Source of the DNA: Vicinamibacterales bacterium
GTDB taxonomy: Bacteria > Acidobacteriota > Vicinamibacteria > Vicinamibacterales > JAMQPK01
Direction: 5' to 3'
Assembly (NCBI GenBank): GCA_963746535.1
Contig: CAVVBP010000012.1
Coordinates: 448,503 to 512,502 of the forward strand
DNA: 64,000 nt
The translations under genes and the position numbers were made by a program. Positions 41,595 through 47,311 of the stretch are shown here, in pieces. The stretch's first letter is position 1; every line of letters begins with the position of its first letter. Under the pieces are notes generated by a model. That model did no database searches and was not told the DNA's origin. It saw nothing but the letters and a program-made list of their open reading frames with translations.

Positions 41595-42737
41595 TTGACG
41601 AAACTTCGGGTAGGCGTCATCTACGGCGGCCGATCGGGCGAGCACGAGGTCTCGATCGCCTCGGCCGCGGCGGTCGTCCAGAATCTCGACAACGCGCGTT
41701 ACGAAGCCATACCGATCAGGATCGAGAAGGACGGCCGCTGGGTCATCGCCGACCGCCTCCCGTCATCCTCCTCCGCGGCTGCCGTGATCGAGCAGAGCCG
41801 CGCCGATGCCGCCAGGCGTATCGGGCGTGACGGACGCGAAGCGCACCTCGTCGCCCATCCGAGCGAGGAACAGATCATGACGATCGACCGCGGCGCCAGC
41901 CCCGCCGTCGCCGGCCTCGCGCTCGACGTCGTGTTTCCGGTGCTGCATGGTCCGTACGGCGAAGATGGCACGGTGCAGGGGCTGCTGGAGCTCGCCAATA
42001 TTCCATACGTGGGCGCAGGCGTGCTCGCGTCGGCGGTCGGTATGGACAAGGCGGCGGCCAAGCTGATATTCGCGGCGCGCGGCCTGCCGCTGGCCAAGTA
42101 CCTCGTCGTGCTGCGCAACGAGTGGATCTCCGCACCCGGGCGGATCACGAACGACGTGACCCGACAGCTCGGTTATCCGGTGTTCGTGAAACCGGCCAAT
42201 CTCGGATCCAGCGTCGGTATTTCCAAAGCCAAGAGCGAAGCGGCGCTGCCCGCGGCGATCAACACCGCGGCCGAGTTCGACCGCAAGATCGTGATCGAAG
42301 CGGCGGTGCCCAACGCGCGCGAGATCGAGGTGGCGGTGCTCGGCAACGATCATCCCGAAACATCCGTGCCTGGAGAAGTCATCCCATCGCGCGAGTTCTA
42401 CGACTACCAGGCCAAGTACCTGGATGACGACTCGCGCGTGATCATCCCAGCCGAGTTACCGCCAGGTGTCGCAAGCGACATCAAGCGGCTGGCAGTGGAC
42501 GTCTTCCGCGCGGTCGACTGTGCGGGCATGGCGCGGGTCGATTTCCTCATGGACGGCGGCACGGGCACGCTCTACGTGAACGAAATCAACACGATTCCAG
42601 GCTTCACCACGATCAGCATGTATTCCAAAATGTGGGCCGCGTCGGGGGTGTCCTATCCCGAGCTGCTCGATCGACTCATCGCGCTCGCGCGCGAGCGCCA
42701 CGCAGAGAAACAGCAAATCCGCACGACCTTGCCGTGA
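41595..42737 (+). CDS. ddl: D-alanine-D-alanine ligase
   Basis: GGRSGEHEVS, PVLHGPYGEDGT, VKPANLGSSVG, FYDYQAKY and EINTIPGFT motifs. Confidence 0.96.
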   Translation: MTKLRVGVIYGGRSGEHEVSIASAAAVVQNLDNARYEAIPIRIEKDGRWVIADRLPSSSSAAAVIEQSRADAARRIGRDGREAHLVAHPSEEQIMTIDRGASPAVAGLALDVVFPVLHGPYGEDGTVQGLLELANIPYVGAGVLASAVGMDKAAAKLIFAARGLPLAKYLVVLRNEWISAPGRITNDVTRQLGYPVFVKPANLGSSVGISKAKSEAALPAAINTAAEFDRKIVIEAAVPNAREIEVAVLGNDHPETSVPGEVIPSREFYDYQAKYLDDDSRVIIPAELPPGVASDIKRLAVDVFRAVDCAGMARVDFLMDGGTGTLYVNEINTIPGFTTISMYSKMWAASGVSYPELLDRLIALARERHAEKQQIRTTLP

Positions 42738-42739
42738 GC

Positions 42740-43939
42740 ATGACGGCGCGTACGTGTGGTGTGCCACAGAGAGCGCAACGGTTCTCTCTTCTCCAGGTTC
42801 TCTGCGCGATCTGCGGCGGGCTGGCGCTGTCTCCGGCATCTGCCGGAGCGGCGGGCCTGACCTCGCCCGAGCCGCTCGTCAAGGCGTACGAGCTCGTCCT
42901 CGAGGCGCGCTTCGACGAAGCGGCGCGGCAGCTCAAGTCCGCGTGCCCGCCGGCGCCACAGCCGGCCTGCGACGTCATCGCGGCGGTGAACGGCTACTGG
43001 CGCCTGCTCGTGAATCCTGACGACACGGCGGGCGACACCGCGCTGATGAACCAGATCAACGCGGCCATCGCATCCTGCGAAACATGGGTGGCGAAGGAGC
43101 CGAAGCGGGCTGAAGCCTGGTTCTATCTGGGCGGCGCCTACGGAACGCGCGTGCTCCTGCGCGGGCTTCGCGGCCAGTATCTCTCGGCCGCACGGGACGG
43201 CAAACGCATCCACGACTCGCTGCAGCTCACCATCAAGATGGATCCTGCCCTCGGAGACGCGTATTTCGGGCTGGGGCTGTATCACTACTACGCGGCCATC
43301 GCGCCACGCGCCGCGCGCCTGATTGCGATGCTGATGTTTCTGCCGGGCGGCGATCGCGAGGGGGGACTGCGTGAAATGGAGCAGACGCGCACCAAGGGGG
43401 TGCTGATGCGGGGCGAAGCCGACTACCAGCTTCACCTCATCTATCTCTGGTACGAACGCCAGCACACGACGGCGCTGCGGCTCATCGAAGGGCTGCGCGA
43501 CCGCTACCCGCACAATCCCGTGTTCCATCTCCGTCTCGCCGACGTGCAGGGCAACTACGTCCGCAACCATCAGGCGGCGCTGCAGACCTACCGATCGATG
43601 CTCGAGGGCGCGCAGACGGGACGCATCGCGATGTCCGAGATATCGGAGGTGCACGCGCGACTCGGCGTGGCGCAGGAGCTCGACGCGTTGTGCGACAGCG
43701 GCGGCGCGATCGAACAGCTGAACGCGGTGATCGCCAGAAAGCCCGTTGCGCCATACGCCGCGCTCGCGCGCGCGTACTATCAACTGGGCGTCGTGCACGA
43801 TCGATCGGGACGACGATCGGATGCGATCGCCGCCTATGAACGCGCCCAGCGCGAGACGCCTCGTGACGATCGTCTGGAGTTGAATGAGAAACTTCGCGCG
43901 GCGATGAGACGCCCGCCGGCGACGCGAGTGTGCCGCTGA
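42740..43939 (+). CDS. exported TPR-repeat protein
   Basis: Signal-like segment; AWFYLGGAY, DAYFGLGLY and AYYQLG TPR helices; follows ddl. Confidence 0.8.
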   Translation: MTARTCGVPQRAQRFSLLQVLCAICGGLALSPASAGAAGLTSPEPLVKAYELVLEARFDEAARQLKSACPPAPQPACDVIAAVNGYWRLLVNPDDTAGDTALMNQINAAIASCETWVAKEPKRAEAWFYLGGAYGTRVLLRGLRGQYLSAARDGKRIHDSLQLTIKMDPALGDAYFGLGLYHYYAAIAPRAARLIAMLMFLPGGDREGGLREMEQTRTKGVLMRGEADYQLHLIYLWYERQHTTALRLIEGLRDRYPHNPVFHLRLADVQGNYVRNHQAALQTYRSMLEGAQTGRIAMSEISEVHARLGVAQELDALCDSGGAIEQLNAVIARKPVAPYAALARAYYQLGVVHDRSGRRSDAIAAYERAQRETPRDDRLELNEKLRAAMRRPPATRVCR

Positions 43940-43946
43940 CCTAGCT

Positions 43947-44007
43947 CAAAAAATTTGTGTTTTCAATCACTTTTTTGTTGACATGAAATTTTTCTCATCC
44001 ATAATCT
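43947..44007 (+). promoter_or_regulatory. strong sigma70 promoter with AT-rich UP element
   Basis: A/T tracts, then TTGACA (43978-83) and CATAAT (44000-05) or TAATCT (44002-07). Confidence 0.75.
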
Positions 44008-44100
44008 ACATCTTGTATGAGGGTGGATGGCTCAGACCACCCGTTGTGAGACCTCGGTCCGGGCTTTTCAGCTGAGCGAGTCAAACTTCAAGGAGGAAGA

Positions 44101-44145
44101 ATGGCGAAAAAGGGTGGAAAGAAAAAGGGCGGCAAGAAGCGGTAA
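44101..44145 (+). CDS. 14-aa Lys/Gly-rich basic peptide, copy 1 (MAKKGGKKKGGKKR)
   Basis: AAGGAGG SD 4 nt upstream; double stop TAATAG; followed by a terminator. Confidence 0.8.
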   Translation: MAKKGGKKKGGKKR

Positions 44146-44164
44146 TAGCCGTCCGACCGGTTCC

Positions 44165-44200
44165 GGGGGTGCTCAGCAATGACACCCCCTCTTTTTTTTT
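44165..44200 (+). terminator. Rho-independent terminator
   Basis: gggggtg..tca-GCAA-tga..caccccc stem followed by a T9 run. Confidence 0.85.
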
Positions 44201-44340
44201 AGCGGCACTGATCATTCCCAGCAAGAGCACAGCGAGCACCGTTCCGTTACACGCGAGCTGACGTGCCAGGCGGCAGAGGCTTCGCGGTAGACGAGCCGAA
44301 GGGTTCTCGCAACCTTACTGACGAGAGGGGGGAGACGCAA

Positions 44341-44385
44341 ATGGCGAAAAAAGGCGGCAAGAAAAAGGGCGGCAAGAAGCGCTAG
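44341..44385 (+). CDS. 14-aa Lys/Gly-rich basic peptide, copy 2 (MAKKGGKKKGGKKR)
   Basis: Purine-rich SD (agaggggggag); identical peptide with 4 synonymous changes and a different stop codon. Confidence 0.8.
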   Translation: MAKKGGKKKGGKKR

Positions 44386-44393
44386 GCCCCTTT

Positions 44394-44425
44394 CAGGAGG
44401 CGGTCGGACCGATCGCCTCCTGTCT
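44394..44425. terminator. hairpin between peptide copy 2 and the convergent PPIase gene
   Basis: caggaggcg/cgcctcctg 9-bp stem with inner gtcg/cgat pairing. Confidence 0.7.
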
Positions 44426-44447
44426 TCTCACAGATTCCAGATTCAGC

Positions 44448-46565
44448 TCACTGCACCCCATCCCACACCCGAATCCGCGTCACGACATCCCACTGGTTGA
44501 TCGCGTCGACCACCTCGATACCCGTAACGACCCGGCCGAAGACGGTGTAACGGGCGTCGAGATGCGGCTGCGGGCCGTGGGTGATGAAGAACTGGCTGCC
44601 TCCGGTATCTCGCCATGACAGCGCCATGCCGACCGTGCCGCGCAGATACGGCTCCTGGTTCAACTCGTCGCGAATCGTAAAGCCCGGCCCGCCCTCACCA
44701 TCGCCGCGCGGATCGCCGCCCTGAACGACGAAATCCGGCACGACGCGATGGAACGTGAGACCGTCGAAGTAGCCCTTGCGGGCCAGCGCGATGAAGCTGT
44801 CCGAGGTGAGCGGCGCGTCGAGCACGTCGAGCTCGATTTCGATCGTGCCTTTCGCCGTCTCGATGAACACGTGGGGTGAAACCGACGGCGTGACGAGCGC
44901 CGGCGTCTCATACTTGACCGGCCGCGACGAGGGTGCGGGCCTGATGGCCTGCGCAGTGTCGATCGTCGGATCGAGCGTCTTCAGCAGTTCGGCGGCTTTC
45001 ACCCTTACCGCCCAATCCTTGTCGGCCAGCGCGGTGCGGAGCGTGGGCACCGCGGCCGTCGCGCCGTATTTCGAAAGCGCATCAATGGCAGCCGCGCGCG
45101 TGTCGATGACGAGATCGGCTTCGCCGCGCTTGTAGGCCGCCACCAGCGCCTCGACGCCGCCGTCCGGCAGGGTCTCGCCGATGTTCGACGCGGCCGCGGC
45201 ACGGACGTTCACGTCTTCCTTGCCAAGATGTTCGAACAGGATCTTCGCAATATCGGGTGCCTTCAACTTCGTCAACGCCGTCAGCACCGACGGGACGACA
45301 CGCATGTCGCTGTCCGCGAGCATCGGCATCAGCCGCGGCAACGATCGCTCTGGATCCTTCGTGCCGAGAATGGTCGCGAGCCCGGCGCGCACGCTCCAGT
45401 GGGGATCGGGATCGAGCCCCGACAGCACGGTGAGGAAAGTGTCATCGTCGCGCTTCGCGAATCCCTGCAGCGCCGCGAGCCGTACGTTCGGCAGCGGATC
45501 GCCCATGAAATCGACGAACGCATCCACACTGACGGGGCCGTCCGATTCTCCAAGCGCCAACAGCGTTTCGGACCGCGCCATCGGGTTCAACCCGCGCGTG
45601 TAGAGCAATTTGGTCAGCACCGGCTCGCCACGCTCGTCGCCGAGGCGCGCGATCGCGCGGATGGCTTCGATCGTGACGCCGCTCGTCGCATGCGCCGCAT
45701 CGATCGACGCCAGGATGACGGGGACGGCCGATTCGTCGCCGATCGCGCCAAGCCCCTTGAGGGCAAACGCTCTCGTGTACGCGCTGCTCGTCTGCGCAAG
45801 CGTCATCAGAACCGGAAGGGCCCGCTTGTCTTCGATGCGCTGGAAGGCATACGCCACCGGCCACCATTGCACGCGCGGCTGTCCATCGGGCCCGAGGAGC
45901 GACGTCGCCAGGCTGTCGTAGCTCTTCAGCCGCGTCAGCGCGTACACACCGAGCCTGAAGGCCTCGACCGCCGGATCTGCAGGCGCGCGGCTGTCGTCGG
46001 CCGGAAGCGCGGCAGCAGCGGCGGCGTTGGCCACGATCATCTTGCTGATCGCCGGCGCCGACGCCGTGTCGCCGATGAGCCCGAGCGCTTCCGCGGCGCG
46101 ACCGGCCACAAGCGGCAACGGATCGGCGAGGGCGGCACGCAACGGTTCGACGGCCGACTGGTCGCCGATCAGTCCGAGCGCGAACGCCGCCATCTGCCTG
46201 ACTTCGGGATCGGCATCCGACTGCATCACCTTGACGAGCGCCGGCACGGCTTCCGGTAACCCGACGCGTCCGATGGCAATCGCGGCGCGGCGGCGGGTGC
46301 GCGCCTCGGTATCGTTCAACAACAGCACCAGATCGGGAGGCGGCGGCGGTGGAGGCGGCACGACCTCGCCTTTGCGCGGCGGCTTCACGATCGGAGGCGG
46401 CACGACCGGCGCGCTCGCGTCGCGAAGGATCCGTTGGTCCTCGAGGCGGAGAATCCACGACATTTTCGTCTCGAACGACGGGGTCACGACCGGCGGGGGC
46501 AGCGGAGCCGTTCCGCACCCCACGGCGACCAGAGACACAAATGCAAATGAAATACGGCGAAGCAT
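44448..46565 (-). CDS. lipoprotein with HEAT repeats and a C-terminal cyclophilin-type PPIase
   Basis: Lipobox AVGC; repeats of VR..AA.ALG; FHRVVPDFVVQGGDP and GGSQFFIT..PHLD..YTVFG. Confidence 0.88.
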   Translation of the reverse strand: MLRRISFAFVSLVAVGCGTAPLPPPVVTPSFETKMSWILRLEDQRILRDASAPVVPPPIVKPPRKGEVVPPPPPPPPDLVLLLNDTEARTRRRAAIAIGRVGLPEAVPALVKVMQSDADPEVRQMAAFALGLIGDQSAVEPLRAALADPLPLVAGRAAEALGLIGDTASAPAISKMIVANAAAAAALPADDSRAPADPAVEAFRLGVYALTRLKSYDSLATSLLGPDGQPRVQWWPVAYAFQRIEDKRALPVLMTLAQTSSAYTRAFALKGLGAIGDESAVPVILASIDAAHATSGVTIEAIRAIARLGDERGEPVLTKLLYTRGLNPMARSETLLALGESDGPVSVDAFVDFMGDPLPNVRLAALQGFAKRDDDTFLTVLSGLDPDPHWSVRAGLATILGTKDPERSLPRLMPMLADSDMRVVPSVLTALTKLKAPDIAKILFEHLGKEDVNVRAAAASNIGETLPDGGVEALVAAYKRGEADLVIDTRAAAIDALSKYGATAAVPTLRTALADKDWAVRVKAAELLKTLDPTIDTAQAIRPAPSSRPVKYETPALVTPSVSPHVFIETAKGTIEIELDVLDAPLTSDSFIALARKGYFDGLTFHRVVPDFVVQGGDPRGDGEGGPGFTIRDELNQEPYLRGTVGMALSWRDTGGSQFFITHGPQPHLDARYTVFGRVVTGIEVVDAINQWDVVTRIRVWDGVQ

Positions 46566-46663
46566 GCCAACCCCAATATAACAGGTGCGAGGAGTGCAAA
46601 AGTGCGAAGGCCGCTCGGCCAAAGCGCCCAGCCGCGACGGCGGATTTGGTACACTGCGGCGGG

Positions 46664-47311
46664 TTGGAGTTTCGCTACATCGCGATAGACGGTCCGATTG
46701 GCGCAGGCAAGTCGGCACTCGCCGAACGGCTCGCGGCGAGACTCGACGCCTCATTGGTCCGGGAGGATCCGGAAAATCCCTTCCTGGCCGATTTTTACGC
46801 GGATCGTCCCGGTGCGGCACTGCAGGCGCAGCTCTTCTACCTCCTGAACCGGCACCGGCAACTGGTCGATCGCCGGCAGGCCGATCTGTTTTCACAGGTG
46901 GCGATCTGCGATTACATTTTTGAAAAAGATCGCATTTACGCGTACCTCAACCTCGACGACAACGAGCTGTTCATCTATCAGCGCCTGTTCGATCTGCTCG
47001 CGCAGGACGTGCCGACGCCCGATCTCGTCATCTACCTCCAGACCCCGAGCGACGTCCTGCTCAAGCGTTTGCAGGCGCGCGCCCGCGAGCCCGAGCGCCC
47101 CTCGCTCCTGCCCGACGTGGACTATTTGCGCGAGCTGAACGAGGCGTATCATCATTTCTTCTTTCACTACACGGCGACCTCGCTGCTGGTCGTGGAAGGC
47201 TCCGAGTTCCGTCCCCAGGACGACGATGAGGCGCTGGACGATCTGGTGAAGCAAATCAAGACAATGGGTCGGGGCACGAGGTACTACGTGCCGCGCACCC
47301 GGTTGAGGTAA
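46664..47311 (+). CDS. deoxynucleoside kinase
   Basis: IAIDGPIGAGKS, NPFLADFY, QLFYLLNR, DY.FEKD.IY and PDLVIYL; TTG start after TGGTACACT. Confidence 0.88.
   Translation: MEFRYIAIDGPIGAGKSALAERLAARLDASLVREDPENPFLADFYADRPGAALQAQLFYLLNRHRQLVDRRQADLFSQVAICDYIFEKDRIYAYLNLDDNELFIYQRLFDLLAQDVPTPDLVIYLQTPSDVLLKRLQARAREPERPSLLPDVDYLRELNEAYHHFFFHYTATSLLVVEGSEFRPQDDDEALDDLVKQIKTMGRGTRYYVPRTRLR

Follow-up and report, generated by a model that had tools for sequence, protein, structure and literature searches.

Among the smallest known ribosomal components, bS22, bL37, bTHX and eL41 are 24-33 amino acids (aa) long, very rich in lysine and arginine, often missed by annotation, and bind ribosomal RNA (rRNA) by charge. 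The leaders of the genes for the ribosomal proteins S15 and S4 are autoregulatory pseudoknots. In Borrelia, bS22 consists of 61% Lys/Arg, was unannotated and was found only by cryo-electron microscopy, and its sequence is almost invariant across Borrelia (10.1101/2023.04.16.537070). Further reports link AlgP to polyphosphate granules (PMC9239181) and describe, for Sinorhizobium, an action in trans of both the 14-aa peptide peTrpL and the attenuator small RNA rnTrpL (PMC7298713, PMC6614838). In the current study, we analyzed a stretch of 64,000 nucleotides (nt) of contig CAVVBP010000012.1 from a Vicinamibacterales bacterium (Acidobacteriota), hereafter the window, which carries two tandem open reading frames (ORF1 and ORF2) for one and the same lysine/glycine peptide of 14 residues, MAKKGGKKKGGKKR. 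These micro-ORFs very probably belong to a real, translated gene family, because changes in the close clade are silent only and those in the wider clade in-frame only, the start, the Shine-Dalgarno sequence and the stop are retained, and there is no downstream gene that a leader peptide could regulate.

The two ORFs proposed by the first-pass annotation were both found (Table 1). Each comprises 45 nt, their starts are exactly 240 nt apart, and the two copies show five differences (AAG/AAA, GGT/GGC, GGA/GGC, CGG/CGC and the stop, TAA/TAG), all of them silent and all at third codon positions. A degenerate pattern of the peptide matched twice in the window against 0.00 matches expected from 100 shuffles, and no Lys-rich micro-ORFs other than ORF1 and ORF2 were detected in the 64 kb. 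A scan for KKGGKKKGGKK in any codon usage, with one genome per species (GTDB), yielded 79 loci. About 25 of these are Vicinamibacterales metagenome-assembled genomes (MAGs) with a 14-codon ORF in which ATG-GCN precedes and CGN-stop follows the pattern, both outside what was searched for; apart from micro-ORFs of other lineages, the rest are Lys/Gly-rich tails of longer proteins. All of the approximately 25 genomes have their genes arranged as tgt-ddl-TPR-[ORF1, ORF2]-HEAT/PPIase(-)-dNK-accD (PPIase, peptidyl-prolyl isomerase), and wherever both copies are visible they are spaced by 226-318 nt. In this set the peptide is 100% identical while amino acid identity drops to 71% for Ddl, 60% for TPR and 62% for HEAT-PPIase; in L062/L006, with Ddl at 55%, TPR at 39% and HEAT-PPIase at 60%, it is still 100% identical.

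An alignment of 20 two-copy loci was used to obtain mean pairwise nucleotide identities per segment (Table 1). ORF1 varied in the 20 genomes only at codon 3 (AAA/AAG) and at the stop codon. In ORF2 there were eight variable columns, seven third positions and a TAG/TGA stop, all silent, with flanks at 33-66% identity. ORF2 is here effectively an unselected observation, because the near-invariant ORF1 alone would bring each locus into the sample. Estimating that about 20% of single-base changes in ORF2 are silent, eight silent changes would arise by chance with a probability of the order of 10^-6. These results, with the existence of orthologues, support the purifying selection on real coding ORFs that had been proposed from the synonymous-only divergence within the window.

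The family was also sampled independently of its peptide. Metagenome contigs were scanned with the first leader-hairpin pattern, TATGAGNGTGGNNGGCTCAGNCCACNC, only, with no ORF criterion, which gave at least 120 loci. Among the matches listed, 103 of 104 readable units had a Shine-Dalgarno sequence and an ATG about 85 nt past the hairpin, opening an ORF of the form MAKK...KKR of 14-52 codons, with occasional variants that start with MAAKK or end in KKK; the one remaining unit, L094, stems from a contig of 1x coverage with a great many apparent errors. The commonest peptide forms among these listed matches are MAKKAAKGGKKKAAKKR and MAKKAAKGAKKKAAKKR, the window's peptide being a minority variant. 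The Lys positions are invariant, their codons vary between AAG and AAA, and the intervening positions swap A, G, S, T and V. The leader-anchored loci are orthologous to the window locus, not merely similar, with the same neighbours (Ddl at 52-85% and HEAT-PPIase at 46-90% identity). In several metagenome loci (L089, L091, L104, L109, L175 and L178) and in L016, ddl abuts the micro-ORF with no TPR gene between. Of the earlier view that the exact 14-mer is the conserved unit, the fixation in one sub-clade stands, but across the orthologous locus the peptide ranges from 13 to 52 aa, with the lysines and the MAKK and KKR ends kept. Overall, the predicted family is Vicinamibacteria-wide and consists of Lys/Ala/Gly peptides of this type, always located between ddl(-TPR) and the convergent HEAT/cyclophilin gene. 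Besides, one MAG contig titled 'uncultured Bifidobacteriaceae' (L074, CAYHHH010000121.1) carries the full Vicinamibacterales synteny block with both peptide genes and has probably been binned or labelled wrongly.

Most loci have a second Lys-rich ORF 250-320 nt downstream. Similarity is higher between the paralogues of one genome than between orthologues of different lineages, as in the pair MAAKKKVAKKKGGKKR with MAAKKKVAKKKAGKKR (examples are L113, L160, L165 and L089), and this suggests that genes are converted or selected in parallel. Where the ORF is (KKKAT)n-like with 44-52 aa (L109, L114, L167, L175, L178 and L195), the lineage holds a single copy, the second having been lost. Given the variable length and the exchange among A, G, S, T and V, selection acts on positive charge, small side chains and both ends and not on the exact sequence, and perhaps also on total dosage.

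Sixteen of the 120 listed contigs break off in the locus, no more than 150 nt from the leader hairpin, that is, within or just after the leader or the ORF (L100, L112, L121, L125-L127, L137, L149, L151, L162, L173, L182, L191, L192, L198 and L199). We rejected these ends as evidence of transcripts, as they do not fall at transcript boundaries and the pattern is the one expected from assembly breaks at the repeated ORF. The locus is probably under-represented or truncated in short-read assemblies through such breaks at near-identical tandem ORFs.

When the 103 peptides among the matches listed are pooled, lysine accounts for 49% of the residues, alanine for 28%, glycine for 8%, and arginine and methionine for 5% each, T, V, S and P being rare. 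This composition corresponds to the Lys/Ala-rich low complexity of histone H1-like and AlgP-type proteins; homology to a curated family of that type was found neither in Pfam nor in NCBIfam. Nine residue types occur in total among these peptides, none of them acidic or aromatic. The mature peptide, probably AKKGGKKKGGKKR, would carry a net charge of approximately +8. We tentatively favour a peptide that would act by charge on polyanions, because variation in length and A/G/S/T/V exchange are tolerated, Lys, Arg and small residues are used exclusively, the paralogues evolve in concert and single-copy loci have a longer ORF. The variability in length and residues thus favours a role of charge or composition, protamine- or polyamine-like, over the fit to one ribosomal pocket.

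Such a fit is what the main rival explanation calls for, in which the peptide would be a small protein dedicated to the ribosome, or a factor bound to it, of the bS22, bL37, bTHX or eL41 kind. It would sit in a specific pocket of the rRNA and control its own synthesis through the leaders, as is the case in many ribosomal protein operons. The unannotated bS22 of Borrelia sets a direct precedent. The peptide is comparable to bS22 in size and basic content, the promoter, Shine-Dalgarno and terminator signals are strong, and the conservation of unit 1 (ORF1 with its leader and terminator) is near the level of rRNA. A structured leader before the gene of a basic protein recalls the S15 and S4 leaders, two differently regulated paralogues recall alternative ribosomal protein paralogues, and the common Ala/Lys forms could be helical. 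On the other hand, the Gly-Gly pairs of the window's form disfavour a helix, and a length of 13-52 aa with free non-lysine positions is unlike the near-invariant bS22. Family members of 23, 29 and 45 aa had no match in a phmmer search of all PDB chains, ribosomal ones included (0 at E<=10), and members of at least 20 aa matched no family in NCBIfam and Pfam (0 at E<=10); queries of this length were used as the 14-mer itself is too short for such searches. The leaders, moreover, resemble Escherichia coli 16S, 23S and 5S rRNA no more than shuffled controls do. We therefore regard a ribosomal protein as unlikely and keep the charge-based reading as the preferred one.

The surroundings of the two ORFs agree in full with the description in the first-pass annotation, which had placed a stand-alone locus between a TPR gene and a convergent PPIase gene. 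Pfam identified the neighbours as Ddl, a TPR protein and a protein with HEAT repeats and a cyclophilin domain. The next gene beyond ORF2 is this convergent one, and because no same-strand gene follows, the micro-ORF is the terminal product. The proposed AT-rich, UP-like region was present (28% G+C at 43940-44011 versus 64% across the window) together with the TTGACA/CATAAT promoter, which is the sole sigma-70-like site within 43500-44900. A Shine-Dalgarno site and a downstream hairpin were located for each ORF, as claimed; a simple terminator scan with strict loop and U-tract rules had passed over both hairpins, and their folding energies recovered them. Terminator 1, the stem of which begins about 20 nt past the ORF1 stop, is kept across all relatives with a variable loop. 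The hairpin behind ORF2 abuts the 3' end of the HEAT/cyclophilin gene and is retained among genomes despite its changing stem sequence. The flanks of the two copies are mutually unrelated, again in agreement with the first description, and the covariance model of leader 1 matches only 5' of ORF1. As the promoter scan found no sigma-70-like site in the spacer between the units, ORF2 lacks a visible promoter, and its expression would therefore depend on read-through of terminator 1 or on an unrecognised promoter. An analogue of the hairpin around the ORF1 stop, of the type GAAGAA/UUCUUC, was read by eye at the same site in Ala-type relatives. Two other candidates were rejected: an in-frame GTG extension of ORF2 (44263), whose extent differs among genomes, and a sigma-54 promoter in leader 2, where TGGCAC was seen by eye on the minus strand only and without a TTGC partner.

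Table 1. Features of the micro-ORF locus. Coordinates are positions in the window; identity is the mean pairwise nucleotide identity in the alignment of 20 two-copy loci.
Feature	Coordinates	Strand	Details	Identity
Upstream gene end and UP region				67%
AT-rich UP-element-like stretch, 5' of the -35 hexamer	43944-43977	+	motif AAAWTTTT..TTTTCAATCAYTTTTTTG kept in 20 genomes	
Sigma-70-type promoter of unit 1	43978-44005	+	TTGACA-16 nt-CATAAT; 11/12 consensus positions	89%
5' untranslated region (UTR) of ORF1				92%
Leader 1, about 90 nt	44010-44100	+	model R1, 88.7 bits, its single match in the window	
P1 of leader 1	44021-44026 with 44037-44042	+	GGGUGG/CCACCC	
S2 helix of leader 1	44029-44035 with 44072-44077	+	P1 loop GGCUCAG complementary to CUGAGC; H-type pseudoknot fit	
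Shine-Dalgarno of ORF1	44090-44096	+	AAGGAGG	
ORF1	44101-44145	+	encodes MAKKGGKKKGGKKR and stop; ATG GCG AAA AAG GGT GGA AAG AAA AAG GGC GGC AAG AAG CGG TAA	97%
Hairpin enclosing the last codons and stop of ORF1	44127-44154	+	GGGCGGC/GCCGUCC; in minimum free energy (MFE) structure, centroid and RNAalifold consensus	
Intrinsic terminator of unit 1 (terminator 1)	44165-44200	+	GGGGGUG...CACCCCC then U9; -21.8 kcal/mol, z = -3.1	90%
Variable spacer between units 1 and 2	44201-44231	+	many indels	37%
Leader 2, long imperfect hairpin	44232-44340	+	capped by core ACGUGCCAGGCGGCAGAG	82%
Invariant core of leader 2	44261-44278	+	ACGUGCCAGGCGGCAGAG; apical UGCC-AGGC-GGCA hairpin	
Shine-Dalgarno of ORF2	44323-44333	+	GAGAGGGGGGA	
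ORF2	44341-44385	+	encodes MAKKGGKKKGGKKR and stop; ATG GCG AAA AAA GGC GGC AAG AAA AAG GGC GGC AAG AAG CGC TAG	95%
GC-rich 13-bp hairpin 3' of ORF2 (hairpin 2)	44394-44422	+	terminator-like, weak U tract; -24.1 kcal/mol, z = -4.3	66%
Downstream region				33%
HEAT/cyclophilin gene, convergent to the micro-ORFs	44448-46895	-	Pfam	

This arrangement also recalls that of regulatory leader peptides, in which translation of the Lys/Gly/Ala codons would sense charged tRNA-Lys or ribosome speed and thereby control terminator 1 and the read-through into unit 2, or free a trans-acting attenuator RNA, the peptide being a by-product or having a second function. The ORF has the classic size, seven of its 14 codons are for Lys, an intrinsic terminator follows it closely past the stop, the stop codon lies inside a hairpin, and a promoter of ORF2 is not apparent. 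That unit 1 is conserved at the nucleotide level, synonymous sites included, suggests a role as RNA, and peTrpL/rnTrpL provide a precedent for a dual-function transcript. A role as a pure attenuator or sensor is nevertheless improbable because only a second copy lies downstream, without any biosynthetic or structural gene, and in single-copy lineages nothing does. Neither ORFs of up to 52 codons nor conserved MAKK and KKR ends are needed by a codon sensor, and inspection gave no convincing antiterminator to terminator 1, only a weak CCGG/CCGG alternative.

The regions preceding the two ORFs form two distinct structured leaders, absent from the earlier description and the most conserved parts of the locus. 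RNAalifold on MAFFT alignments gave only invariant hairpins for both, so covariance-model alignment and per-sequence folds with flank-shuffle controls were used instead. For leader 1, the structural support is comparative, the global MFE of the window's sequence alone being no more stable than that of its shuffles (z = +0.2). The covariance model R1, built on the helices P1 and P2, had exactly one match per Vicinamibacteria locus (100 of 100 related loci, 66-114 bits) and none 5' of ORF2, elsewhere in the window or in loci of other phyla. Across relatives, the P1 loop GGCUCAG(C) is complementary to GCUGAG(Y)C about 40 nt downstream, which would give the helix S2, and the variable segment between the two strands folds into the P2 hairpin in most lineages. 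The resulting geometry, with a 6-bp stem, a 2-nt loop, a second stem of 6-8 bp abutting the first and a long third loop that holds a hairpin, fits an H-type pseudoknot, and the Shine-Dalgarno sequence follows about 15 nt past it.

When 86 distinct leader 1 sequences were aligned, 90.6% of cells were paired versus 29-46% with the partners slid, in an alignment that was fitted to P1 and P2 and for which the 5' strand of S2 was fixed by the ascertainment pattern. P1 shows one GC-to-CG swap, in five sequences, at positions that the search pattern had left free, and 4-6 pairs of P2 carry changes in both strands. The core of S2 comprises six pairs that are nearly always intact, the unconstrained 3' strand varying essentially only between C and U opposite G. 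The peptide-ascertained genomes, the divergent L016 included, retain both strands of S2. The unusual GGU-GGA codons of ORF1 (44112-44119), which are GGC-GGC in ORF2, are complementary to CUUUUCA in leader 1 (44064-44070) in the RNAalifold prediction for the window's sub-clade, and in L089 (8201-8330) UUUCC was read by eye opposite GGGAA. Pairing of this kind between leader and ORF may explain why ORF1, unlike ORF2, is frozen at synonymous sites.

A 10-codon upstream ORF (44017-44049; AUG AGG GUG GAU GGC UCA GAC CAC CCG UUG UGA) overlaps P1 and lies only some 6 nt from the presumed start of transcription. In its frame, the compensatory P1 changes of relatives are non-synonymous (Arg to Ser, Pro to Ala), and it therefore seems that the RNA structure is selected and not that peptide. 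A 51-aa ORF at 44027-44182 was also rejected as a gene, its AUG, located in the P1 loop, being ACG, GCG, UCG or CCG in relatives.

Leader 2 is unrelated to leader 1. Its core was unchanged in 56 of 56 distinct sequences. The helix that encloses the core, with 22 pairs on average, differs in sequence between lineages and keeps its complementarity, and at least 10 enclosing pairs were formed in 98% of the leader 2 sequences versus 48% of the flank-shuffled controls. In most lineages, the pairing AAUCC...GGGGGGAUU covers the Shine-Dalgarno sequence. Rfam 15 had no family, tRNAs and riboswitches included, at its gathering score in the 64-kb window; within 43800-44600 it gave chance-level matches only (E 0.24-8.7, far below the cut-offs), so that neither leader matches a family. 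A suspected likeness of leader 1 (AUGGCUCAGA) to the 5' end of 16S rRNA and of leader 2 (CGUGCCAG...GCGGUA) to the 530 loop was rejected as mimicry, as the local alignment to E. coli 16S, 23S and 5S rRNA was no better than that of 10-35% of dinucleotide shuffles.

Considering the conserved structure in both leaders and the nucleotide conservation of unit 1 including its UTRs, the product could also be RNA only, i.e., a small RNA or protein-binding RNA in which the ORFs are incidental. We consider this hardly credible. The start, a correctly spaced Shine-Dalgarno sequence and the stop are kept in 103 of the 104 leader-anchored units listed, length changes are in-frame only, just nine residue types occur with synonymous variation of the Lys codons, and the changes in ORF2 are silent only while its flanks diverge. 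The RNA of unit 1 may nonetheless have a function of its own, because its nucleotide conservation extends beyond the coding need, and this conservation leaves room for a dual-function transcript.

Returning to the charge-based reading, we propose a theoretical scheme in which the peptide itself would be the product and would be made in quantity. Such a free and flexible polycation would be a small diffusible counter-ion of, or chaperone for, cellular polyanions such as ribosomes and rRNA, other RNA, DNA or polyphosphate, i.e., a gene-encoded protamine- or polyamine-like molecule. The leaders would set the peptide level through translation, leader 1 by means of a pseudoknot located about 15 nt 5' of the Shine-Dalgarno sequence and leader 2 by means of a hairpin followed by anti-Shine-Dalgarno pairing, with ORF1 as a constitutive and ORF2 as a conditional copy. 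The peptide, or the cellular status of polycations and Mg2+, might in turn act on them, although such a feedback through the leaders is doubtful. In a further form, a 'genetic polyamine', a free ribosomally made polycation of 13-17 residues would exist in Vicinamibacteria and independently in other phyla, its level held constant by two leaders that sense, through their folding, the polycation or the overall balance of cations and polyanions. This form we think rather improbable; if true, it would represent a new class of riboregulator, responsive to peptide or charge, and the structural gene coupled to it would be the smallest dedicated one known from bacteria.

Several observations weigh against the preferred reading or parts of it. 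A bulk counter-ion role has no obvious need for two elaborate leaders or for invariant MAKK and KKR ends. The nucleotides of unit 1 are conserved well beyond what the peptide needs (the 5' UTR at 92% and ORF1, synonymous sites included, at 97%). The covariation in S2 is one-sided (G-C/G-U), its 5' strand having been fixed by the search pattern. Finally, the similarity to micro-ORFs of other phyla may be a convergence of low-complexity sequence.

Similar units, with promoter, short hairpin leader, K/G micro-ORF and terminator, also occur outside the Vicinamibacteria, Eremiobacterota-like loci included. The Terriglobales form is MATKKGGKKKGGKKKH; that of 'Ca. Angelobacter', MATKKKGGKKKGGKKK, differs from it by an in-frame codon difference and shows a compensatory change in the leader hairpin. 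Genomes of Pyrinomonadaceae and Vulcanimicrobiota hold a 29-aa and a 20-aa form, respectively, those of a Paceibacterota and a Fraserbacteria member forms of 15 and 14 aa, and two Bacteroidota genomes forms of 22 and 36 aa.

In part of these lineages the micro-ORF lies in a cell-wall and division (dcw) neighbourhood. In the Paceibacterota genome, a member of the candidate phyla radiation (L021:3400-3500), it stands between murB and mraZ-rsmH, as identified by Pfam. In the Fraserbacteria genome (L071:3040-3100) it is immediately 5' of murD-ftsW(-murG), with murD and ftsW identified by Pfam and murG by sequence reading only. In the Vicinamibacteria, including the window (41595-44385), the locus adjoins ddl, directly where the TPR gene is absent. 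This recurrence could point to a role at the envelope, in cell division or extracellularly, where the peptide would interact with anionic polymers or lipids of the envelope or with division proteins, but we regard such a role as highly improbable. A signal peptide and hydrophobic segments are absent, genes for transport or modification do not occur nearby, and five other lineages (Terriglobales, Pyrinomonadaceae, L045, L038 and L020) lack a dcw neighbourhood; the ORFs compared across phyla may, moreover, not be homologous.

Longer basic proteins were also noted. Two unrelated MAGs (L004:560-860, and L033 on the minus strand at about 1800-2100) encode a basic protein of about 70 aa, MAKYGKTA.KKVKKAMHERKKG.LKSGRSGKKVTSKKQAIAIGLSEARKAGGKVPKKKGGKKKGGKKKSSKK, with a conserved N-terminal domain and a K/G tail, which is unrelated to the micro-ORF family. 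Besides, Lys/Ala/Gly-rich proteins of 76-89 aa with KKGGKKKGGKK repeats were detected in Myxococcota (L013, L036 and L061) and Gemmatimonadota (L007, L053 and L069), with strong Shine-Dalgarno sites at the myxobacterial loci L036 and L061. These are longer stand-alone polycations and possibly functional analogues of the micro-ORFs.

The peptide had not been recognised as a member of a described family in the first-pass annotation, and this agrees with the searches made here of Rfam, Pfam, NCBIfam, PDB, protein collections and literature. None of ten longer members was present in a collection of 15 billion proteins when looked up exactly, and literature searches by peptide string and by topic returned no description of such a peptide family. 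What is new is therefore an unannotated, clade-wide micropeptide family with its two conserved structured RNA leaders, small basic proteins that bind polyanions by charge being already familiar. With 14 codons plus a promoter, a leader and a terminator of their own, the micro-ORFs would, if translated, rank with the shortest dedicated, free-standing genes of bacteria. Gene callers miss the family, which is nevertheless fixed in a lineage abundant in soils worldwide, with at least 120 metagenome loci. It would illustrate cleanly how selection can favour charge and composition over sequence, with paralogues evolving in concert, and provide a tractable case for the role of free polycationic micropeptides in bacteria, be it at the ribosome, the nucleoid, polyphosphate or in RNA chaperoning. 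Cultured relatives with genome papers exist (Luteitalea and Vicinamibacter).

Of the known systems, bS22, bL37, bTHX and eL41 share with the micro-ORF peptides a tiny size, a highly basic composition and the fact of having been overlooked by annotation. Those proteins, however, have defined sequences and form helices in fixed pockets, whereas the micro-ORF family extends over 13-52 aa with A, G, S, T and V interchangeable and has no match in PDB. The low-complexity K/A(/G/T) repeats of the KKKAA type are shared with AlgP, Hc1/Hc2 and the C-terminal tail of HupB/Hlp, which bind polyanions, as is predicted for the micro-ORF peptides. AlgP, Hc1/Hc2 and HupB/Hlp comprise tens to hundreds of residues, usually on a folded domain, whereas the micro-ORF product would in most lineages be a free 13-17-mer with fixed MAKK and KKR ends and, unlike them, comes with a separate promoter, a terminator and structured leaders dedicated to it. 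With peTrpL/rnTrpL, unit 1 has in common a 14-aa ORF closely followed by an intrinsic terminator on a small, highly conserved transcript. In contrast to trpL, which precedes the trp genes and contains Trp sensor codons, the micro-ORF is followed by a tandem duplicate in place of a structural gene and encodes a polycation. The S15 and S4 leaders, like those of the micro-ORFs, place a pseudoknot or long hairpin just 5' of the Shine-Dalgarno sequence of a gene with a basic product, RNA binding being predicted for the micro-ORF peptide; unlike them, the micro-ORF leaders match no Rfam family and show no rRNA mimicry above chance.

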